DNA of 32,000 nt, taken from Promethearchaeota archaeon. GTDB taxonomy: Archaea; Asgardarchaeota; Lokiarchaeia; Sigyniarchaeales; SOKP01. The position numbers and the translations under genes are program-made. The number at the start of each line of letters is the position of its first letter. Position 1 is the stretch's first letter. Where the stretch lies: contig JAUWGH010000006.1 in the NCBI GenBank assembly GCA_030606485.1, positions 210,001 to 242,000 of the forward strand, written 5' to 3'. A model generated the notes under the pieces. That model did no database searches, was not told the origin of the DNA, and saw nothing but the letters and a program-made list of their open reading frames with translations. This document shows positions 3,755-30,949 of the stretch, piece by piece.

Positions 3755-4252
3755 TTACATCTTTATTTTGTTTAATACATCATCAAGATAATTGATATTC
3801 TCCTGTTCGAGTTCTTCCTTTAACGCATTCGCTAACGAATATCGAAACGCCCATAGTTCTAAATTTTTATCCAATTCTTTTACTTTCTTAACAACAGGTA
3901 CAAAATCACCGTCTCCAGATACCAATATAGCCGTATCATATGCATTTTCATACGCAAGAGAGATTATATCAATCGCGATTTTTATATCAACTTTCTTTTC
4001 AACGGCATCACTAAACGTTATCTTATCAAAACTGGCTTTAATCACATATCCACTTAGATTACTTAAATCCTCATACCACTTCTTTTTCTCCAGACTCATG
4101 GGATACACGACACCTTCATATAAAAATATGCCCTGTAATTTTCGGCCCCGAGTTATGATGTTTTTCAGCTTTTCATAGTCTGCCTTGATGTTAAACTTCC
4201 TAAAACCCTTGAAAATGTTGCTATTATCTATAAAAATTATGATTCGTTCCAT
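3755..4252 (-). CDS. NYN domain (LabA/DUF88, PIN-like) nuclease, copy A
   Basis: IFIDNSN, EKKVDIKIAIDII and DTAILVSGDGDFVPVV motifs. Start set at ATG 4252 because the paralog at 14264..14761 has the same 498-nt length. Confidence 0.92.
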   Translation of the reverse strand: MERIIIFIDNSNIFKGFRKFNIKADYEKLKNIITRGRKLQGIFLYEGVVYPMSLEKKKWYEDLSNLSGYVIKASFDKITFSDAVEKKVDIKIAIDIISLAYENAYDTAILVSGDGDFVPVVKKVKELDKNLELWAFRYSLANALKEELEQENINYLDDVLNKIKM

Positions 4253-4463
4253 TTCAAAAACCTTTTTTGTTACCTTAAAATGCAATTAATGATTGATGAT
4301 TAATAATAACTATGCAAGAACCGAAAAGACGAAAAAAACTCCCGAATCGCCAACAACTTCGCAAAATGAGACCTTAAGAGTAAATATTGTGGTGACCTAA
4401 TTAAAATCAAATAAATCAATCAAATATAAATATGAAGATAAAACATATCATTTCTGCAATACC

Positions 4464-4658
4464 GTGTGTGAGGTCGAATTTAAAAGTGACCCTAAAAAAT
4501 ACATTCAAAAAGAAATAATTGATGCTTTTATCGTTCGTGATAAAGATCAAATTACAATTCCAAAAGAAATCCCAGAAAAATTAGGAATTACGAAAGGAGA
4601 TAAACTAATTCTTGATTTAAAAGAGAATAAAATAATAATTACTAAATATCTCTCATAA
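4464..4658 (+). CDS. AbrB/MazE/SpoVT-type DNA-binding protein, possibly degenerate
   Basis: QITIPKEIPEKLGITKGDKLILDLKENKIII matches the AbrB consensus, with P where R is usual; N-terminus atypical. Confidence 0.6.
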   Translation: MCEVEFKSDPKKYIQKEIIDAFIVRDKDQITIPKEIPEKLGITKGDKLILDLKENKIIITKYLS

Positions 4659-8547: not shown

Positions 8548-8931
8548 TTAAGGTAGAATTAAATTGAAATAATCAATTAAAATGTTTTTTATTCGTTTTA
8601 AATCAACATCATCTATCTTTCCCCATTTTTTTATAAACCTTTTATGACTTAAAGATCTAATTTGATATAACATTGCTATGGATTTCTTCGTTAGCCCATT
8701 TTTTTGTGATGGATTTATTGTATATGTATGATGGAATTTTCCAACTTGCAAATTACTTGTTAATGGAATAATTGTTGACAAATTCACAAACTTATTTACT
8801 TTAAGAACGATGCATGGTCGCTTATCCATCATCTCATGTTCTATATAATCTGTTTTAGTATATGATAATTGAACTAACCAAATTTCTCCTTTATTGATAT
8901 TAATTTTTTTACCTGATTGCATTAATGTCAC
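8548..8931 (-). CDS. MazF/PemK family endoribonuclease toxin
   Basis: GEIWLVQL, KRPCIVL, IIPLTS and SIAMLYQIRSLSHKRF. Confidence 0.88.
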   Translation of the reverse strand: MTLMQSGKKININKGEIWLVQLSYTKTDYIEHEMMDKRPCIVLKVNKFVNLSTIIPLTSNLQVGKFHHTYTINPSQKNGLTKKSIAMLYQIRSLSHKRFIKKWGKIDDVDLKRIKNILIDYFNLILP

Positions 8932-14263: not shown

Positions 14264-14761
14264 TTACATTTTTATTTTACTCAATATATCATCAACATAA
14301 TAGATATTTTTCTGTTCGACTTCTTCCTTTAACGCATTTGCTAACGAATATCGAAACGCCCAAACTTCCACATTTTTATCCAATTCCTTTACTTTCTTAA
14401 CAACCGGCACAAAATCCCAGTCTCCAGAGACCAATACCGCCGTATCATATGTATTCTCATACACAAGAGAGATTATATCAATAGCGATTTTGATATCAAC
14501 TTTCTTCTCAATGGCATCACTAAACTCTATCTTATCAAAACTCGCTTTAATCACATATCCACTTCTATTACTTAAATCCTCATACCACTTCTTTTTCTCT
14601 GGGCTCATGGGATACACAACGCCTTCATATAAAAATATGCCCTGTAATTTTCGACGCTTCGTTATGATTTTTTTCAGTTTTTCATAGTCTGCCTTGATAT
14701 TATACTTCTTAAAGCCCTGGAAAATGTTGCTGTTATCTATAAAGATTATGATTCGTTCCAT
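14264..14761 (-). CDS. NYN domain (LabA/DUF88) nuclease, copy B
   Basis: 143/165 residues identical to copy A by hand count; SGDGDF has become SGDWDF. Confidence 0.92.
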   Translation of the reverse strand: MERIIIFIDNSNIFQGFKKYNIKADYEKLKKIITKRRKLQGIFLYEGVVYPMSPEKKKWYEDLSNRSGYVIKASFDKIEFSDAIEKKVDIKIAIDIISLVYENTYDTAVLVSGDWDFVPVVKKVKELDKNVEVWAFRYSLANALKEEVEQKNIYYVDDILSKIKM

Positions 14762-19464: not shown

Positions 19465-20277
19465 GTGACTGCAACAACTAGAAATAGAAAACCTTATCTT
19501 ATTTTAACTTTAAGGGATGCGACCAATAATTTAAGAAATGTTAAAAAATGGCTCTCTGATGAAAAAGAATTAGAAGATCAACGAAAATTGTTTGAGATTG
19601 GTAATGTTTTAGAAATAGAAGCCAAATTTGAGGTAAATTATAAAAGTGTAATTATTAATAATGCGAGAATATTAAGTTCTAATGAATTTAATTTGGACGA
19701 ATTTGTTATTTTACCAAAAATTGACGAACGAGAATTGTTAAAATGCTTAAATGAGACTATATCGAAAATAAGAAATGAATTGTTAAAGGAATTATTAGAT
19801 AAAATATTTAGTGATAAAGATATCAAAACCAAATTTATAGAATGCCCCTCTTCTGTGAAAAAACACCATCCATATAAATTTGGTAATTTAGAGCATACAA
19901 TTGGAATGATTAAAATATTTGAAAATTTAGAAGCATTTTATAATAGAAGCACAAATCTTGATGTTGATCTAATTTATACTGGAATTATTTTGCACGATAT
20001 AGGCAAAATATATGAATATTATATTTATAATGGTATTCCAAAAATTAATGCTGAATATTCATTAATTGGACATCTAGTTCTGGGAGATCAACTGGTTTCA
20101 AAATTTATAACTGATATTGAAAAATTTCCTAAAGATTTAGAAAATAGAATACGACATCTAATTTTGAGTCATCATGGAAGAAAGGAATGGAGATCTCCAG
20201 TAGAACCACAATTTCCTGAAGCCGAAATTTTGCATTATTTAGATATGATAGATTCGAGATTTAAATTAAACCCTTAA
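19465..20277 (+). CDS. YhaM/Cbf1-like OB-fold + HD-domain 3'-5' exonuclease
   Basis: KPYLILTLRDAT (OB), HHPY..GNLEHT, ILHDIGK, and ILSHHG..EW.SPVEP...EAEILHYLDMIDS. The frame is open from 19363. Confidence 0.85.
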   Translation: MTATTRNRKPYLILTLRDATNNLRNVKKWLSDEKELEDQRKLFEIGNVLEIEAKFEVNYKSVIINNARILSSNEFNLDEFVILPKIDERELLKCLNETISKIRNELLKELLDKIFSDKDIKTKFIECPSSVKKHHPYKFGNLEHTIGMIKIFENLEAFYNRSTNLDVDLIYTGIILHDIGKIYEYYIYNGIPKINAEYSLIGHLVLGDQLVSKFITDIEKFPKDLENRIRHLILSHHGRKEWRSPVEPQFPEAEILHYLDMIDSRFKLNP

Positions 20278-20338: not shown

Positions 20339-20650
20339 GTGATAAATATAAAGATTTTTCCAAGAAAATATAAAGATAATAAGAATTGTAAAGATTGTGC
20401 ATTTCTTGAGGAAAAAAGTAAAGATTTGAAAGTTCTTGATGAACCAAATAAAGTTGCAATTATTTGTACTATAAAAAATGATATACCAAAAAATAATTAT
20501 TGTCGCCATTTTAAAAATAGAGTAGAATTATTTAAACCTGAGAAAAGATTAAAATATTATACTTTACTGAGAGAAAGAATTTATTCAGCGATATCTCTAG
20601 TTTTTAGCGGAATAGCAATTACTATTAGTATTTTTGCAATTTTTTTTTAG
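20339..20650 (+). CDS. hypothetical Cys-containing protein with C-terminal membrane anchor
   Basis: CKDC, two further Cys, and a hydrophobic tail ISLVFSGIAITISIFAIFF. Confidence 0.5.
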   Translation: MINIKIFPRKYKDNKNCKDCAFLEEKSKDLKVLDEPNKVAIICTIKNDIPKNNYCRHFKNRVELFKPEKRLKYYTLLRERIYSAISLVFSGIAITISIFAIFF

Positions 20651-21360
20651 TTGATATAAATCTAAATTTCTGATTGTTGATATATTACAGGTTATTATTT
20701 ATGGAATTATTCAAATTTTCACATCTATGATTGGAGATGGCTTGAATAACAATTTTTGAGAGACTGATTCATGTTTTTTATCATTCAATTGACCTTAGTG
20801 AAGAGGGAATTTATGAAGCTGGCGAATGGGCTACCGTAAATAATACCAAGTGATATCACTTCCAACCCTGGGATTTCAAAATAAATGAAATTAGATTTGG
20901 CGAAGATAGAGAGGTTTCAATTAAAGTTTCAATCGAATGGAAAGTCACTGAAAGGAACGATCCCTTAGGAAAGCCGCTACTAGACCTGAAATTAAAAACA
21001 ACCATTAAATTTTCCTAGCATGGAGCAAAAGCTAAATTAAATCAAGCTATTATCAATTATATTCTCAACGCAGAGGGAACAAGTAAAGAAATACCAATTA
21101 AGGGGAAAGATACAATGGAAAATCAAATGCATAATAGAAATATTTTAATTTAAACTTAAAATTGAACTTAAAAAACTCAAAATTACCAATATTATTTGAA
21201 TTTATTCCTATCTCGTTTTAAAATAGAATAAAATTTATGATTCATACATAGATTATAAAATATAAATAGAGTATTAAAGGAAAAATTTTTATAAATTTTA
21301 ATCTAAATTATTTGTGAACATCTAATAAATTATAAATTGAAAAAATTTGGAGGAGAGCAT

Positions 21361-21894
21361 ATGTCAAAAAGGCATAAAGTATTTTTAAGCTATCATCATG
21401 AAAATGATGAAAAATACAAAATTTTATTTGAAAAAATGTTTGGAAATGTTTATATTTCCAAAGCTGTTGAGCTCGGCGATATTGATCCTTATTTAAACAC
21501 AGAAACCATCCGACGTAAGATTAGAGATGAATTTCTAAGAGATTCCACCGTTACCGTAGTTCTTGTAGGTAGCGAGACTTGGAAAAGAAAACATGTTGAT
21601 TGGGAAATCTCATCAAGTATTCGAGACACTCAATATAATCCTAGATCTGGACTTCTAGGCATTATTCTACCAACGCATCTCGATTATCATAGAGAAAAAT
21701 ATGATCCATACACAATACCACCCCGATTATATGACAATATCAAGTGTGATTATGCAAAAATCTATGATTGGACCAATAATTCTAATTATATTCAAGAATG
21801 GATTCATGAAGCTTTTAAAAGAAAAGACCAAATAAATCCGAATAATGCACAAACATTGTTCAAAAATAATCGTTCTGGCAATAGATGGCAATAA
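21361..21894 (+). CDS. TIR domain protein, ThsB/DUF1863 (MTH538)-like
   Basis: KVFLSYHH, IRRKIRDEFLRDSTVTVVLVG and KHVDWEI (catalytic Glu position); GGAG precedes ATG 21361. Confidence 0.88.
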   Translation: MSKRHKVFLSYHHENDEKYKILFEKMFGNVYISKAVELGDIDPYLNTETIRRKIRDEFLRDSTVTVVLVGSETWKRKHVDWEISSSIRDTQYNPRSGLLGIILPTHLDYHREKYDPYTIPPRLYDNIKCDYAKIYDWTNNSNYIQEWIHEAFKRKDQINPNNAQTLFKNNRSGNRWQ

Positions 21895-21915
21895 ATTTTT
21901 AAAGTATCAAAAAAA

Positions 21916-23976
21916 ATGACAGTTAAATTTATTCCTTATAAACCTCGTCTTCAAGTTTATATCCTGGTGCACCCGGACTCGGATTTTAAATTAGATTTAC
22001 CAAATAACATTTACTCTTTTTTAACAAGAGATATTAAGGATCCACTATCTAGAGGATTAGGAATTCCTGTCTTTTTTTGGAACCCATTTCAAAAATCAGA
22101 TAATAAAATTTTCAATTCAATCGACTTTAATAACGCACACCATACTGTTGTTATTTCATTGATTGACTATAAAATGGTTAATGATTCTGATTGGAGTGAA
22201 TATATTAATCAAATATGGAATCGAATTAAAAATAATTATGTCCAACATCGTTTAATCCCAGTTGCTCTCGATAATACTGCATTAAATATTGATGGAGAAG
22301 TACAAAAGGCTAATTTTTTACAATTTTTTAAATTTCCCGAAGATAAACGTATCCAACTATTAAGAATCCAATTAACTCATGAATTATGTCGACTTCTTAA
22401 GGGTGATTTAGATCCAAATCTTTTTAACAAACTCTCATTACCAATTAATTTGTTTCTTAGTCATGCAAAAATAGATGGAGAATCTCATATAATAAAGGTA
22501 CGAGATTTCATCAATAAAGAAACATCAATAAATTCATTTTTTTACGCAATTGATATTCCACCTGGATTAGAATTTGAACGGATAATTGAAGAAAATATTG
22601 CAAATGCGTGCTTGTTGATATTTCAAACCGATAAATTTGCATCAAGAGAATGGTGTAGGCGAGAAGTTTTAATTGCAAAAAAAAAAAAATGTCCTATAAT
22701 TGTTATTAACTGTTTAGTTGATGGTGTAGATAGAAGTTTTCCCTACATGGGGAATGTTCCTATAATTCGTTGGAATATAGAAGATAAGAATAGAATAATT
22801 GATATTTTAACTCTTGCACTTCAAGAAATGCTTCGTTATTTGTATAATGCCCAACATCTCAAAGATTTTTACAATGTTTGGAAAATTTCTGATAAAAATT
22901 TAAAATGTTTTCGCGCTCCCGAAATATTAACTTGTATTCAATTTTTAAATGATAATCAAATTAAAAGTAATAATATTTTTATATACCCAGATCCACCTTT
23001 GGGTATAGAAGAACATATCTTACTTAAAAAAACTTTAACAAATGTACAATTTATGACGCCCACTCAATTTATAAAAAAAAAAATTAGCAAGATAACCAAC
23101 CAAAAATCGCGTAAAATAATTGGTTTGTCAATATCAAAAAGTCCTGAATTACCAAGGAAAGGGTTAGCGCCCCATCATTTAACTGATGCAATGGTAGAAT
23201 TTACTCGTTATGTACTTGCATCTAAAACTTCAATTGCTTATGGAGGGGATCTTAGAGAAAATGGTTTTACAAAAATCCTTTTTGATTTGGCTAGAAAACA
23301 CACTAAATCAGATGAGGAACCAAGAACCCGTATTTTAAATTTCTTATCTTGGCCTTATTATAGGAAATTGTCCGAAAAAGATCAAGCAGAGTTAATTCGT
23401 GTGGCAGATATTAAAAAAATAGACCTTCCGGATGATCTTAAAAAATTTTCTGAAAAAGAAATAGATGTTCAAAAACCAGAAGATAAATACTTAGTAGCTC
23501 GCGCCCTTACGAAGATGAGGAGTGAAATGAATAAATTTATTGATTGCAGGATATTTTTTGGGGGTAATACAACGGAATTTCAAGGTAAATATCCAGGGTT
23601 AATAGAAGAAGCTTATCTTACCTTGAAAGCAAAAAAACCTATTTATTTAATTGGTTCTTTTGGTGGTGCTTCTCATGCTATTATTGAAGCTATAAAAGGT
23701 GAAATACCAGAAATTTTAACAATCGAAAAACATCTACAAAAATCGGATTATAAAGCATTTGTTGAATATTATAATCAAAAAGTATTGCAAAATTCAAGTA
23801 TTATAGAAGAGATTATTGATTATGACAAAATATTAAAATTTTTTCATAAAATTGGAATAGATGGATTGAAAAATGGTTTGACAGAAGCTGAGAATTATCA
23901 ACTTTTTAAAACGCCCTATATATTCGAGATGATTTCATTAGTTTTAAAAGGTCTTTCAAGAATCAAAATTATATAG
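21916..23976 (+). CDS. TIR domain + C-terminal SLOG domain fusion protein
   Basis: Central TIR (LFLSHAKIDG, SREWCRREV); C-terminal SLOG-like region (IAYGGDLR..GFT, RIFFGG, GKYPGLIEEA, KKPIYLIGSFGGAS); N-terminal Rossmann-like region unassigned. Confidence 0.78.
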   Translation: MTVKFIPYKPRLQVYILVHPDSDFKLDLPNNIYSFLTRDIKDPLSRGLGIPVFFWNPFQKSDNKIFNSIDFNNAHHTVVISLIDYKMVNDSDWSEYINQIWNRIKNNYVQHRLIPVALDNTALNIDGEVQKANFLQFFKFPEDKRIQLLRIQLTHELCRLLKGDLDPNLFNKLSLPINLFLSHAKIDGESHIIKVRDFINKETSINSFFYAIDIPPGLEFERIIEENIANACLLIFQTDKFASREWCRREVLIAKKKKCPIIVINCLVDGVDRSFPYMGNVPIIRWNIEDKNRIIDILTLALQEMLRYLYNAQHLKDFYNVWKISDKNLKCFRAPEILTCIQFLNDNQIKSNNIFIYPDPPLGIEEHILLKKTLTNVQFMTPTQFIKKKISKITNQKSRKIIGLSISKSPELPRKGLAPHHLTDAMVEFTRYVLASKTSIAYGGDLRENGFTKILFDLARKHTKSDEEPRTRILNFLSWPYYRKLSEKDQAELIRVADIKKIDLPDDLKKFSEKEIDVQKPEDKYLVARALTKMRSEMNKFIDCRIFFGGNTTEFQGKYPGLIEEAYLTLKAKKPIYLIGSFGGASHAIIEAIKGEIPEILTIEKHLQKSDYKAFVEYYNQKVLQNSSIIEEIIDYDKILKFFHKIGIDGLKNGLTEAENYQLFKTPYIFEMISLVLKGLSRIKII

Positions 23977-24179
23977 TTAAAACAAATTATTTTTTTATAT
24001 CAAAAAACCTAAAAGATTTATTAATAATTAACCGATTTTTTTTAATATTTTAAAAAAATAAATTAATTTAAGATTTCAAGATTCTTCCTTATTTTTTTAA
24101 AGTCATATTCTTTATTTTTTAAATATTCATTTTAACCTTAATGTAAAAGATTTAAATAGAAATACGGATAATATTAAAT

Positions 24180-24628
24180 ATGGCAAGAATTTTTCTGTGT
24201 CATCCAAATAGAGAAGCATATGCTACAAGTACTGCTCACAGCTTTGCTCACTATATTCGAGAACATTCAAGATTTGGTGTTTGGTTAGATACAGAACATT
24301 TTCCTAAAGTCAAATAACTAGTGAAAATCAAATTAGACAGATTTTACGTAAAGGACTAAATCAATGCAACATTTTTTTGAGTCTATACTTTCCAAGTACA
24401 TCATTATCTCGTTCAAGAAGTGATATTTGGTATGAAGATGAGCAAAATATGGCGTTTCATCGTGGAATGCCAATTATTCAAACATATCTTGAAGGTGCTC
24501 GATCAACCCCTTCTGAAAGATCTTATCGTAAAAGATATAAATTTCATTATTCCCATTATCAAAAATGGAAAGCAGATTTATTGAATAAAATAAGAGAAGT
24601 TGCACGTTTAAATAATATTTCCTATTAA
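24180..24628 (+). pseudogene. third TIR domain gene interrupted by a single frameshift
   Basis: MARIFLCHP...FGVWLDTEHFPK is in one frame and SQITSENQIRQILRKGLNQCNIFLSLYFP...IWYEDEQNMAFHRGMPII in another. Adding one A at cctaaagtc (24303-24311) gives a ~149-aa TIR. Confidence 0.75.
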
Positions 24629-24731
24629 AAAATAAAATTTATTAATAAAATATCAATGCAAAATAGATTTCATAAGAAATTTTATTAATTTTCTCTAAAT
24701 TCTAATTTATGATTTAAATTCATCAATCTTT

Positions 24732-26160: not shown

Positions 26161-26478
26161 TCAGGAAAATGGAAAATCAGAAATTGTAATGGAACCATCC
26201 TTTTCAATGTAAAAAGTAATTTGATGACCTAAATGAAATAAATTTGAATTCATAAAGATTCCTCCATTATCCTTTAGAAAATTGAAATTTTTTCTTTTTA
26301 TTCCTACTTTTTTATACAATTCTGGTTTCTTCTGGCGTGATTCTACTATTACTAACTTCTTCTCCAAATCTTTAGTTTCTTCCAAGCAAGTTGGTCCTTC
26401 TCCATTTTTAACATCAATTGGGAGTGTATTACTTTCATCAATAACAAATTCTATTTCCTTTTTAACCATCATTGCCAC
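26161..26478 (-). pseudogene. DUF2997-like protein read through into the start of a truncated downstream gene
   Basis: IEFVID...GEGPTCLEETKDLE...KKPELY resembles DUF2997; an internal GGAGG-ATG at 26253 starts a 30-codon stub. Confidence 0.5.
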
Positions 26479-26664
26479 TTCCTTACGACTATTTAAGTTT
26501 TTTAAAAAAGACCTTATATATTAAAAGAGTTATTATACTATATACAATTAGAAAATATAATCTTATTTGGTATTAAAGGTAAATATATAAGTCAATATTT
26601 GAAATTATTTAAATTAGGATATCATTTATTTTCATATAATATAATATTCGGGGGTTTATTTTAA

Positions 26665-27978
26665 ATGAAAAAATACTCAGATGTCCAAAAAATTATTTGG
26701 ATTACAAGATCTTTTTCAACTTCAATGGATAAAGAGTTACTAATTAATAGATCTTTATCAAAAATATTCTTCTTAGGTAGAACTTTTGAATTACTGAATC
26801 AAATATTTGGGATTACTCAAATATCATTAAATGAACTCTATGATAAAGGTTTATTTTGTAATTTAGAGCCAGAATTGGTAAATTTAATTATAGATGTATT
26901 AATTAATTTTGGCCTTGCACAAAAATCATCAGATGAAAAATATTTGGAACTAAATTTCCTTGATAATAAATATAAATTATATAGTAAGATATATCAAGAA
27001 TCTAATTTTAAAGAATTATCAAAACAAGAAACATGTTGTTTAAAAATTTTAGATATTCTTACAATTAAACCCTTAAATTATGAAGAAATTGCTGATCATT
27101 TTTTAATTGAAGATAAAGAATTATTAAAATCTAGTTTAAATCTACTAACTGATTTAAATTTGAGTAACAAAATCGAAATAAAAGGACAATATTATTATTT
27201 AACTCCTTTAAATACATATGGGAATTATCAAAAATATGTGGATTATTGCCAAAATCACTCTTCTGAAGAGATTGATTTAGTTGCTGAATTATTTGAATAT
27301 TTAAAAGAACATAAAGGTATCCCATATGGTTTGTTACCAGAAAAATTTAAAAAGATTGGAAAATATTGTCTTGATTTAGGTATTTTACATGGAGTTAACT
27401 ATGAATTTGGCAAATCTAAAGGTGATGATAATTTTACTTTAATTTTCCCTACATCAGAAGAGTTCGATATGATAAAACATTCTTGTAACGATTTTGATAA
27501 AATTCACGCCTCTATTGGACTACTTGTATACGGTGTTTATTATAATCCCCATAAAATTAAATATCCTGAAAAGTATATTTCAGCATTAATAAGTCGAGGA
27601 GAATTAAGAGGTACTAATATATTCCTTAAAGAAAAAATTTCCCAATTTAATCCAAGTATTTGTTCTGGCATTATTAATTATTCACCAGGCTTTTCTAAAT
27701 ATTTTACAAGCTATGGGAACTTAAAAACCTTCGAGGTTCATAAACCAAAATTAATTTCTTCGGAGGATAATCGCAATGCACTAAATCAAGGATTAAGGTT
27801 ATTTCTAAAAAATGATCCTCTCGAATTTGAAACAAATAAATTATTTGAAAAGTCAATTTTTGATATTGATATATTATATTCCGATACAGCCGGAATTTCG
27901 ACTTTTCCTTTTAGTAGAAAAAAATCTTTAAAAGAAAAATATATTGAAGAATTATTTCAATTAAGGAAAGAGAGATAA
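26665..27978 (+). CDS. uncharacterised 437-aa protein with probable winged-helix repeats
   Basis: Long clean ORF; ISLNEL...VLINFGLAQ and LNYEEIADHF...LNLLTDLNL look like wHTH units. Confidence 0.7.
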   Translation: MKKYSDVQKIIWITRSFSTSMDKELLINRSLSKIFFLGRTFELLNQIFGITQISLNELYDKGLFCNLEPELVNLIIDVLINFGLAQKSSDEKYLELNFLDNKYKLYSKIYQESNFKELSKQETCCLKILDILTIKPLNYEEIADHFLIEDKELLKSSLNLLTDLNLSNKIEIKGQYYYLTPLNTYGNYQKYVDYCQNHSSEEIDLVAELFEYLKEHKGIPYGLLPEKFKKIGKYCLDLGILHGVNYEFGKSKGDDNFTLIFPTSEEFDMIKHSCNDFDKIHASIGLLVYGVYYNPHKIKYPEKYISALISRGELRGTNIFLKEKISQFNPSICSGIINYSPGFSKYFTSYGNLKTFEVHKPKLISSEDNRNALNQGLRLFLKNDPLEFETNKLFEKSIFDIDILYSDTAGISTFPFSRKKSLKEKYIEELFQLRKER

Positions 27979-27980
27979 AT

Positions 27981-29078
27981 ATGACTTTTGCTGGGAAAAA
28001 TGATAAAGATAGAAAAAATAAATTATTATTATTTAATTTATTTTGGAAAAATGGATTCATTCCTCGTATAGAAATACCAATATATGAATATGTTGGAGAT
28101 GATAAATTTGGAAATCCATTAACAGATTTAGATGTATTTGCATGGAAATATATACCATTTATCGGAATTATAAAACTTACTGGAAGCGCAAAAGGTGATA
28201 CACCTAACGTTTCTCATAGATCTGAAATTTTTAAATTAAAAGGTGTAAATGAATATTTTAATCCATTTCAATCTTTTTATGTTCACGATTCAAGTCCTAC
28301 GGATGAACTGTATTGGTTTGGAAAAAAATTAGGGATTGAAATATTATCAAAAGCTTCTATTTCATCAATGACAAAAAGATTAAAAGGAAATTTTAATTTT
28401 TCCGAAGTGGGAGCTAATTCTTTATGTAATTCAATATTACTTACAAAAAAATTAAATAAATATGATTTCATAACTTCATTAGTTTGGTTATCTAAAAATC
28501 CTGATAAAATTTATAAAATAGAAGCATTACTAATAGAAAGTATAAAAAAATATAATAACATTGATGAAAAAAATAACTTACTTCTTCTTCTCTATTTAAT
28601 TTCAATATATCTTTTTTCAATTACTGAGATTATTGAAAAAATTCAAAATGTAGCACCATCTGATCTTCAATTTAAATTAAAATGGGCATTATATGGAGGA
28701 AAAGAAATTTATAATACGGTAGTAGACGTAATCGACGTGATTAATACATATTTAGAGAAAAAATATGAAGAGAAATCTACACCATTTAACTATGAAAACT
28801 TTATTCCCAAATTTAAACTTCACTCTTTAGTAATTAATAGATTTTTTTTACAGATAGAAGCTATTTTTATTGCAATTAGGTGTATTGATTTTATACTATT
28901 ATATTATGCGGAGTATGATACTATTTTGGATATAGATGTTATAATAAATGATTTTACAAATTCTGAAGTTAAAAAAGGTGAGGCTTTAGGTGTATTAAGA
29001 CATCTTTTTTTGTATTTTAAAGAGAATTTGGACCCCAATTTTGAAAAAGTGGCTAAAAAAATTAATCTAATGAGATGA
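27981..29078 (+). CDS. uncharacterised 365-aa protein with possible PD-(D/E)xK-like N-terminal domain
   Basis: Starts 2 nt after the previous stop; LTDLDVFAW...GSAKG resembles restriction-endonuclease motifs II/III; helical C-terminal half. Confidence 0.6.
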   Translation: MTFAGKNDKDRKNKLLLFNLFWKNGFIPRIEIPIYEYVGDDKFGNPLTDLDVFAWKYIPFIGIIKLTGSAKGDTPNVSHRSEIFKLKGVNEYFNPFQSFYVHDSSPTDELYWFGKKLGIEILSKASISSMTKRLKGNFNFSEVGANSLCNSILLTKKLNKYDFITSLVWLSKNPDKIYKIEALLIESIKKYNNIDEKNNLLLLLYLISIYLFSITEIIEKIQNVAPSDLQFKLKWALYGGKEIYNTVVDVIDVINTYLEKKYEEKSTPFNYENFIPKFKLHSLVINRFFLQIEAIFIAIRCIDFILLYYAEYDTILDIDVIINDFTNSEVKKGEALGVLRHLFLYFKENLDPNFEKVAKKINLMR

Positions 29079-29461: not shown

Positions 29462-30949
29462 CTAAACACATTGAAATTTGATTGGTTCATTATGCTCGGC
29501 AATAATTACTTCTATTTCTGAGGTATGAAAAAATTTTTCAAAAAACTTAGCGTGTTCCGTATGAATTGGAATTAAATATCGCGGATTAATTTCATGTATA
29601 AAGTTAATTAAATCATGTGGCGTTGCATGTCCGGATGCATGAATACGATAAGCCGGGATTCCAATTTTTTCTAATTCCTTACTTATAGTTTTCGAATTAT
29701 CATAGAACTCCTCGACATAGGGATCAACACTTGAAGATATAAACAAACCCTTGAGATTATGGTTAAGATTATTCATTAGATCTTCATAAAGATGAGTTAT
29801 ATATATAAAATAGTTTCTTTCCAAATCTTTTAGTTGATTATACTCAATAAATCTCTCTCCTTGCTGTTGTTTGTAAATAACTTGACGAATCTCCTCTTGC
29901 CAAGGAAATCTTACGCGTCCCTTTTTCAGAATATAAACATGCTCATCCTCAATAATGTTGGGATCCATCATCGTTTCATAGATCGCATCCTTATTTAAAA
30001 GATAATAAAAATACGCATCCTTCTCTGTAATAATGTATTTCCAGCCATACTCTTTCGCGATATGTGAATATGTCCTGAACCGATCCCAATCTATTCGATC
30101 ATATTTTACTAAAATAAAATCAAAAGGATTCTTCTGAAATAATTTCTCTAAATTACTTTTCACACTATCTTCCGATTCGACCATTCCCTTATGAACTTTC
30201 GTTCCTTCACATATCAGCACTTTTACTCCATTTGAAATTAGATTTTGCTCTTCCTGATTTAAATTAATTTTCGATAAGTATAAATTATTGGTTTTTATCT
30301 CTTGAAGAAATTCTTCTGTCATGTTCGATAAGGGTCCATGCATTCGAAAATCTCCCGTATAAACAATTGGTCCCGCAGAACTATATATAATAAATCCATA
30401 CGCCGCAGGTATCGAATGATCCACATGAAACGGGACCACATTCAATCCTTTGATACTCAATATATCTCCTGTCCTAAATGTATGCCAATTCAATCCGGCA
30501 AAATTATTCTCAATTGAACGCTTTGTAGACTTGTAGAATGCCATAATAATTTTCTTGGTAACAACACCCGTATAAATCGGAATTATGCGATTCACAAACG
30601 ATATCCCTAAAAAATGATCCTTATGCGGATGCGAAATGAAAATCGCATCTAAATTTGAAGGGAAATCCTCATCAACTAAATTCTTAGGTTGAGTTCCAAT
30701 TTGCTTAGTATATAAATTCTCAATAGAAAGATGGTCCTCATTAGGAATTATGTCAAGACTTATTAACTCTTTAATCGATGAGGGATGCTGTCCCTTTCTA
30801 TAATTCCCTTTAAATTTTTCAATATTTACGCCAAAATCCAAAAAAATCTTTACGCCATATCCAATATCTTCTAAAAATACGATATTCCCCCCTACTTCAT
30901 TAACTCCACCTAATAAAGTTATCCTAATCGTCTGATTGGATTCTCCCAT
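29462..30949 (-). CDS. MBL-fold beta-CASP hydrolase, RNase J-like
   Basis: LLGGVNEVGGN, LDFG, SHPHKDH, VDHSIP, YTGDFRMHG, ICEGT, HASGHA and IPIHTEH. Confidence 0.88.
   Translation of the reverse strand: MGESNQTIRITLLGGVNEVGGNIVFLEDIGYGVKIFLDFGVNIEKFKGNYRKGQHPSSIKELISLDIIPNEDHLSIENLYTKQIGTQPKNLVDEDFPSNLDAIFISHPHKDHFLGISFVNRIIPIYTGVVTKKIIMAFYKSTKRSIENNFAGLNWHTFRTGDILSIKGLNVVPFHVDHSIPAAYGFIIYSSAGPIVYTGDFRMHGPLSNMTEEFLQEIKTNNLYLSKINLNQEEQNLISNGVKVLICEGTKVHKGMVESEDSVKSNLEKLFQKNPFDFILVKYDRIDWDRFRTYSHIAKEYGWKYIITEKDAYFYYLLNKDAIYETMMDPNIIEDEHVYILKKGRVRFPWQEEIRQVIYKQQQGERFIEYNQLKDLERNYFIYITHLYEDLMNNLNHNLKGLFISSSVDPYVEEFYDNSKTISKELEKIGIPAYRIHASGHATPHDLINFIHEINPRYLIPIHTEHAKFFEKFFHTSEIEVIIAEHNEPIKFQCV

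Follow-up and report, generated by a model that had tools for sequence, protein, structure and literature searches.

We analysed a stretch of 32,000 nucleotides (nt) of contig JAUWGH010000006.1 (positions 210,001 to 242,000, forward strand) of the Promethearchaeota archaeon genome GCA_030606485.1. This stretch is called the window, and positions are counted from its first letter. The window holds a cassette of three co-oriented plus-strand genes, here named A, B and C. They encode a ThsB-type TIR protein (A), a protein that combines a TIR domain with a SLOG domain (B) and a small TIR-like protein whose gene is frameshifted (C). The cassette probably belongs to the class published as type IX Thoeris, in this case in an Asgard host. 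Its likely role is anti-virus signalling of the Thoeris kind, with a predicted nucleotide signal, a putative NADase activity and a putative function in defence.

The protein encoded by gene A matches the Pfam family ThsB_TIR (E-value 1.5e-18) and the PADLOC model of ThsB (3.5e-12), in line with an earlier sequence-only reading of this DNA, which had placed a ThsB-like TIR upstream of a TIR-SLOG gene. PADLOC, named there as a check, thus recognizes A; its 2023 version has no model for B or C. The start codon is the ATG at 21361, as in homologues (MTKRHK.., MTTRHK..). Residue E82 (VDWEI) aligns with the glutamate in the motif RRWVRYEI of ThsB1 (PDB 9b7d), and a glutamate occupies this position in 63 of 66 family members. 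Identity of gene A to the ThsB genes at the Lokiarchaeum ossiferum locus and at L002 amounts to 68-70%.

The sequence-only reading had described B as a 686-amino-acid (aa) protein encoded 21 nt behind A, with a central TIR and, at its C-terminus, a SLOG domain, and this description holds. Pfam TIR_2 matches residues 180-264 (1e-8), and SLOG cluster2 (PF18163) matches residues 399-663 well above the gathering threshold (4.5e-83, 279.3 bits against a cut-off of 25.3), with positions 4-264 of the 264 in the model covered. An AlphaFold2 model built from 64 homologues has a mean predicted local distance difference test (pLDDT) score of 88.9 and a predicted template modelling score of 0.90. In this model, residues 176-302 superpose on the TIR NADase of SARM1 (VIA-align, Z 17.3, root mean square deviation (rmsd) 1.9 Å over 122 residues) and the TIR domain also superposes on that of SPARTA (Z ~16). 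Residues 398-686 superpose on the 3' cyclic ADP-ribose (3'cADPR)-bound SLOG domain of BcThsA (7uxs; Z 15.7, rmsd 2.9 Å over 183 residues). These results carry out the structure prediction that had been proposed as a check and answer the doubt, raised in the same place, that the C-terminal domain might not be a SLOG. A phmmer search of the SLOG domain against PDB sequences returned nothing. The profile of the B TIR family matches bacterial and plant TIR structures, and because the family profile matches only TIR chains in the PDB, no structure of a B-family member has been solved.

Sequence conservation in B coincides with the expected functional sites. In the motif W246-C-R-R-E250, residues W246, C247, R248 and E250 are invariant in 64 homologues, as are three glycine-rich SLOG motifs (YGG at 442-444, PG at 560-561 and GxxGG at 580-584). 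A catalytic-type glutamate in each of the three TIRs had been noted from the letters, and it is retained in all of them, including E88 of C, which is invariant in 16 aligned relatives. For the N-terminal domain of B (residues 1-172), Pfam gave no match and profile comparison no similarity to TIR domains; a language-model look-up linked it to TIR clusters (0.91), which we take as a lead only. Both A and B are intact and full length, keep all invariant residues and are under purifying selection relative to their relatives, with a ratio of non-synonymous to synonymous substitution rates (dN/dS) of ~0.2 for A and of 0.2-0.3 for the two genes.

Table 1. Features of the cassette, in window coordinates
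Feature	Position	Strand	Basis or remark
Mobile three-gene cassette	21273..24649	+	Exact span over which the metagenomic contigs L088, L089 and L090 show ~96% nucleotide identity
GGAGGAG motif, ribosome-binding-like, 5 nt ahead of the A start	21349..21355	+	Sequence; putative function
Gene A, ThsB-type TIR, 177 aa, putative infection sensor/signal synthase	21361..21894	+	Pfam and PADLOC
Gene B, 686 aa	21916..23976	+	Gap to the A stop exactly 21 nt
B N-terminal domain, residues 1-172, alpha/beta, unassigned family	21916..22431	+	Conserved in 64 of 64 aligned homologues, confidently folded
B TIR domain, residues 176-307, putative NADase effector	22441..22836	+	TIR_2, SARM1 superposition
B SLOG domain, residues 398-686, putative nucleotide-signal receptor	23107..23976	+	PF18163, ThsA SLOG superposition
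Gene C, 5' piece, 45 codons followed by a premature TAA	24180..24317	+	Protein matches residues 1-43 of the intact relative P0130 without difference
1-nt deletion breaking C, A3 against A4 in relatives	24305..24308	+	DNA alignment with L088-L090
Gene C, 3' piece, other frame, WYEDE motif with E88	24308..24628	+	Holds the open reading frame 24377-24628 of the sequence-only reading

Yirmiya et al. (bioRxiv 10.64898/2025.12.03.692087, December 2025) scanned ~600 million proteins; seven new types of Thoeris were validated in that work. Type IX consists of a TIR gene, ThsB, and an effector, ThsJ, labelled 'TIR and SLOG' (10.64898/2025.12.03.692087). The type IX operon of Bacillus cereus VD021, with one TIR gene and the effector, protected B. 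subtilis from phages, and the operon of Paenibacillus macerans 8244 has TIR genes on either side of the effector (10.64898/2025.12.03.692087). The statement in the sequence-only reading that no characterized system of this layout was known is therefore superseded. In the window, a separate TIR gene (A) stands 21 nt upstream of the effector gene, and a single polypeptide (B) contains both TIR and SLOG. Proteins of 680 aa from the B. cereus group are 38-39% identical to B over their full length and have ThsB neighbours, and homologues 53-56% identical to the P. macerans type IX TIR (2639430608) directly adjoin B-family genes. We infer membership in type IX from these two links together with the published domain label.

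Several features are shared with the published type IX operons: one or more separate TIR genes beside one protein with TIR and SLOG domains, the lack of SIR2, Macro and caspase domains and, as in P. macerans, a TIR or TIR-like gene on either side of that of the effector. The cassette differs from them in its Asgard host, in its ThsB, which belongs to another TIR clade than the VD021 ThsB and is nearer to the type VI ThsBs, and in its third gene, which comes from a rare small TIR-like family and is frameshifted. Two sets of candidate type IX TIRs were rejected. The TIR genes downstream of the TIR-SLOG genes of Bacillus toyonensis and B. thuringiensis (L092 and L093) do not correspond to the ThsB gene of VD021, and in L037 and L049 the neighbours from Paenibacillus belong to different types of TIR. 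The rejected downstream genes in L092 (3572-4495) and L093 (5067-6116) encode proteins of 307-349 aa with a C-terminal TIR; their N-terminal domain of ~170 residues (motif IAIGGKLDGSANMLLL) belongs to no Pfam family and might be SLOG-like.

No SIR2, Macro or caspase domain was detected in B, in the neighbouring open reading frames (ORFs) or in the other ORFs scanned across the window, which bears out the earlier observation that no such gene is adjacent and sets aside Thoeris types II and IV, whose effectors are of the Macro-TM and the caspase-like kind, respectively. Type I Thoeris (ThsB with the SIR2-SLOG protein ThsA, as in Bacillus cereus MSX-D12) shares with the cassette a ThsB-type TIR with a catalytic glutamate and probably the same logic of sensor, signal and nicotinamide adenine dinucleotide (NAD+)-depleting effector. 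In contrast to ThsA, the enzymatic domain of B is a TIR and not SIR2, its SLOG is of cluster2 (279 bits) and not of the ThsA-type STALD kind (18.2 bits, below the cut-off of 24), and B has an additional conserved N-terminal domain. Type I was also rejected as an identification on the lack of a SIR2 match and of a PADLOC ThsA match.

The TIR domains of SARM1 and SPARTA are NAD+-consuming executioners that act after ligand- or assembly-driven activation. The TIR of B has the same fold and the same glutamate-bearing helix (Z 16-17, rmsd 1.9-2.5 Å), with a sequence identity of 14-18%; its regulatory partner differs, being SLOG in B, ARM-SAM in SARM1 and APAZ/Argonaute in SPARTA.

The B family is large and widespread. 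We identified 614 homologues at E<=1e-3. The 120 homologues listed have both TIR_2 and PF18163, nearly all are ~650-720 aa long, and they include proteins from Bacillus cereus (39% identity), B. toyonensis (38%), Paenibacillus, Lysinibacillus, cyanobacteria, Burkholderiales and Lokiarchaeum ossiferum. In contigs from one genome per species, 410 B-family loci from many bacterial phyla were confirmed; within the GTDB genus Paenibacillus, a B homologue is found in only 1 of 93 genomes. ThsB-type genes (one to three) stand beside the TIR-SLOG gene in 41 of the 80 bacterial loci examined. The flanking ORFs of the remaining 39 loci include 11 with TIR_2 and five with WD40 repeats. The B. toyonensis and B. 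thuringiensis loci have the order TIR_2, ThsB, TIR-SLOG, TIR. Most TIR-SLOG genes are thus accompanied by one to four separate TIR genes, so that a layout with several TIRs is normal for the family and the rule in Bacillus.

A cassette of the same kind is found in L. ossiferum, a cultured Asgard archaeon, where the locus has the order C-like gene, uncharacterized 161-aa gene, ThsB, TIR-SLOG. In L002, the TIR-SLOG gene and the genes of ThsB and C have divergent orientations. A quick tree groups the window clade with the L. ossiferum protein against 57 bacterial and metagenomic sequences (Shimodaira-Hasegawa approximate likelihood ratio test support 99), which suggests an Asgard-associated clade of the cassette shared with L. 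ossiferum. This clade is provisional because the L. ossiferum branch is long and composition is biased. The L. ossiferum cassette occupies positions 3314-6968 of L001 (CP163304.1); its C-like gene is longer (201 aa, with a Gly/Ser-rich N-terminus), and the extra 161-aa gene lies between this gene and ThsB.

The cassette is an accessory, horizontally mobile unit of 3.4 kb. B was not found in the 40 related genomes searched, which belong to the same genus, family and order, and the same cassette occurs in differing flanks; these two observations are the basis for its mobility. The metagenomic contigs L088-L090 contain the same three genes in identical order, and beyond the shared span the flanks are unrelated, with a PLD/Nudix gene, a MazE gene or, in the window, an HD-domain gene. 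A search for direct or inverted repeats at the cassette ends retrieved only AT-rich, chance-like matches. The sequencing runs that contain the cassette are cold-seep, marine-sediment and subsurface metagenomes.

Between otherwise near-identical copies of the cassette, the ThsB gene (21361-21894) is far more diverged than its partners (21916-24628). Relative to L088, synonymous divergence is 0.56 in A, 0.02 in B and 0 in C, and the nucleotide differences number 85 of 531 in A and 18 of 2058 in B. The much higher divergence of A than of B and C suggests recombinational swapping of the sensor gene. In addition, window positions 4435-4646 and 30802-30922 are 80-93% identical to DNA directly adjoining the cassette of related contigs, namely to the MazE gene of L088-L090 and to the first part of L089. 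Close relatives therefore differ by rearrangements of the cassette or of its surroundings.

Gene C is inactivated in this genome by a real 1-nt deletion. The complete gene would have 149 codons (24180-24628); frame 0 begins at 24180 (MARIFLCHPNRE...) and runs into a stop at 24315-24317. Where the relatives read CCTAAAAG, the window reads CCTAAAG, one A having been lost from a run of four. A 44.7-kb contig assembled independently from the likely source run, a cold-seep metagenome (X1), at a depth of ~59 shows no differences from the window over 21300-24700, the deletion included. As this contig reproduces the deletion, the frameshift belongs to the population and not to the genome assembly. Contigs from three other runs (X2, X3 and X5) have an extra A inserted behind 24305. 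An intact 149-aa relative (P0130), ~95% identical to C, is present in at least four metagenomic contigs. Joined across the break, with X at the break, C is 57% identical over 133 residues to the intact gene beside the TIR-SLOG gene in L002, and 35% identical to the 201-aa gene of the L. ossiferum locus. Compared with three relatives whose C proteins are identical to one another, the window copy carries five changes, all of them non-synonymous. These numbers, small as they are, agree with a relaxation of selection confined to C.

Neither the two pieces of C nor C itself has a Pfam match. In an hhalign comparison, the profile of the C family aligns with the TIR domain of B (probability 84%, E-value 8e-6), pairing IFLSHpNR with LFLSHAKxDG and WYxxE88 with WCRRE250. 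The L. ossiferum homologue of C matches TIR_2 weakly over the whole model (E-value 0.01), and among 16 distant relatives of C three match TIR_2 and two match ThsB_TIR. A structural model of C (pLDDT 78.7) retrieved nucleoside deoxyribosyltransferase, DNPH1 and MilB as well as the SARM1 TIR and SEFIR in Foldseek (template modelling scores 0.5-0.66), a search that does not separate TIR and SEFIR from the related deoxyribosyltransferase/DNPH1 fold. Among 1.84 billion representatives, a profile search returned only 15 proteins. From these comparisons we read C as a rare, divergent TIR-like protein that keeps a catalytic-type glutamate, and this small family appears to be confined to the present cassette clade. 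The third TIR of the sequence-only reading corresponds to this TIR-like protein; the 83-aa ORF in which it was seen is only the 3' part of the frameshifted gene.

By analogy with other Thoeris systems, the cassette might operate as a relay. Upon virus infection, the ThsB-type TIR encoded by A would sense the infection and convert NAD+ into a cyclic ADP-ribose isomer, and the SLOG cluster2 domain of B would bind this signal. Binding would lead to the assembly or the release of the SARM1-like TIR domain of B, probably the former. Activation by assembly is established for SARM1, SPARTA and ThsA filaments. The activated TIR domain could then degrade NAD+, or make a further product, and stop the growth of the infected cell. 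The intact C of the relatives is probably a second sensor or signal maker. The relay suggested by the sequence-only reading, from two sensor TIRs to SLOG and on to a TIR effector, agrees with the anatomy of the proteins except that the second sensor is frameshifted here. This genome therefore has at most one intact sensor TIR, and the system, if it runs at all, runs on A and B.

There is a small chance that the clade uses a signal other than 3'cADPR, either 2'cADPR or a new ADP-ribose derivative made jointly by ThsB and the C-type TIR. 2'cADPR might be considered since the window ThsB is 50% identical, over the first 70 residues of its TIR domain, to the ThsB of a type VI Thoeris system that responds to 2'cADPR, although product specificity is not readable from an identity of 50% over 70 residues. 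A Niallia ThsB that adjoins a TIR-SLOG gene is 70% identical to the same type VI protein. 2'cADPR is also the immune signal of plant TIRs. If the SLOG cluster2 domain of ThsJ senses one of these two signals, a TIR-to-TIR signalling relay with a plant-type messenger would exist in an archaeon related to the ancestor of eukaryotes.

A number of observations weigh against type IX Thoeris signalling by the cassette. Gene C is broken in this genome, and the N-terminal domain of B has no assigned role. The placement in type IX relies on a published domain label and on indirect links, with ThsJ compared by description, and the VD021 ThsJ (IMG 2538300522) may instead carry a STALD-type SLOG. The type IX defence data come from a bacterium, B. 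subtilis, and the P. macerans operon with two TIR genes gave no defence in that host (10.64898/2025.12.03.692087). The type IX ThsB made 3'cADPR after infection, and 3'cADPR did not trigger toxicity (10.64898/2025.12.03.692087). Finally, at least 28 of the 80 bacterial loci lack a TIR gene within ~1.3 kb, some of them being cut by contig ends.

The last two of these observations also favour an alternative in which B is self-contained: its own TIR would make the signal for its own SLOG in a self-amplifying manner, or the SLOG would be a LOG-like N-glycosidase that acts on nucleotides, and the separate TIR genes would be optional modulators. The profile of the B TIR matches signal-producing TIRs (AbTIR) as well as NADase effectors, and SLOG domains have been proposed as both sensors and glycosidases (PMC9503650). 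We regard this alternative as unlikely given that separate TIR genes accompany the effector gene at most loci, that ThsB, B and C move together as one cassette and that the SLOG of B superposes on the ligand-binding, non-catalytic SLOG of ThsA.

It is less probable still that the cassette is decaying and non-functional in this genome, with the frameshift in C as the first step of its loss. Such decay would account for the deletion and for the excess of non-synonymous changes in C, and no RNA dataset is found among the listed holders of the stretch. The five substitutions are, however, a small number; A and B remain intact and constrained, as described above, and in the validated system from bacteria a single TIR gene plus the effector is enough.

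Type III Thoeris, reportedly described by van den Berg et al. in 2024 as several TIR proteins with a SLOG protein of a non-STALD kind, was our first identification and is now very improbable. The window likewise has multiple TIRs and a non-STALD SLOG, as does Pseudomonas aeruginosa L0872 with its TIR proteins ThcB1-4 and SLOG effector ThcA, whose SLOG protein, however, lacks a fused effector TIR. We dropped this identification when the window did not satisfy the NCBIfam type III equivalogs (the only match was 19.7 bits for the TIR of B on ThcB4 against a cut-off of 220; no type III model matched A or the intact C at E<=0.01, and that of ThcA did not match B either) and when Tables S1 and S2 of the preprint were seen to label TIR plus SLOG, the fusion found in B, as type IX.

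The host genome (3.75 Mb in 13 contigs) is 100% complete by markers. Its 16S rRNA is archaeal (901 bits, best of the clan), and it encodes a true actin (445 bits on Pfam Actin against 25 bits on MreB); both features agree with an Asgard archaeon. Outside the window the genome has a single further TIR gene, inside an ORF of 1697 codons. This TIR (contig C1, 471156-471924, TIR_2 60 bits) may be part of a large TIR-fused sensor protein, and shortly downstream of it a second weak TIR match contains an in-frame TGA.

Around the cassette, the window has the look of a variable and defence-prone region in which metabolic genes are interspersed. Genes of the toxin-antitoxin and nuclease types are abundant (1906-2789, 3755-4285, 4464-4658, 8548-8931 and 14264-14761) and comprise a HepT/nucleotidyltransferase pair, two NYN-domain genes, a MazE-like antitoxin and a PemK/MazF toxin. 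Outside the shared unit, some 1.1 kb upstream of the cassette, a 270-aa protein (19465-20277) with an OB-fold-like N-terminus and an HD domain shows weak similarity to Cas3 HD nucleases (PADLOC E-value 1e-7), and an ORF of 103 codons (20339-20650) and a spacer separate its gene from the cassette. Downstream, at 26161-29078, a minus-strand DUF2997 gene is followed by two adjacent plus-strand ORFs of 437 and 365 aa, neither of which matches a family in Pfam or PADLOC.

The new points of this work are modest: the Asgard host, the clade shared with L. ossiferum, the rare third TIR-like family and a ThsB that resembles the ThsBs of the 2'cADPR type. In its main text, the large Asgard defence survey of Leao et al. 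has no mention of Thoeris, and a 2026 Asgard defensome paper refers to Thoeris only in connection with anti-defence genes; neither reports a Thoeris system from an Asgard genome. The sequence-only reading had suggested that an Asgard host would bear on the origin of eukaryotic TIR immunity. An Asgard host is supported by 16S and actin, but the line to eukaryotes is weakened by the horizontal movement of the cassette, which by itself is not informative on this origin because it is patchy, mobile and nested within a mainly bacterial family. If the assignment is correct, the TIR-SLOG (type IX-like) class of Thoeris extends to Asgard archaea, the cultured L. ossiferum included, and the archaeal cassette, which is compact, well conserved and equipped with an additional small TIR, would be a usable test case for the ligand and the killing mechanism of TIR-SLOG proteins.

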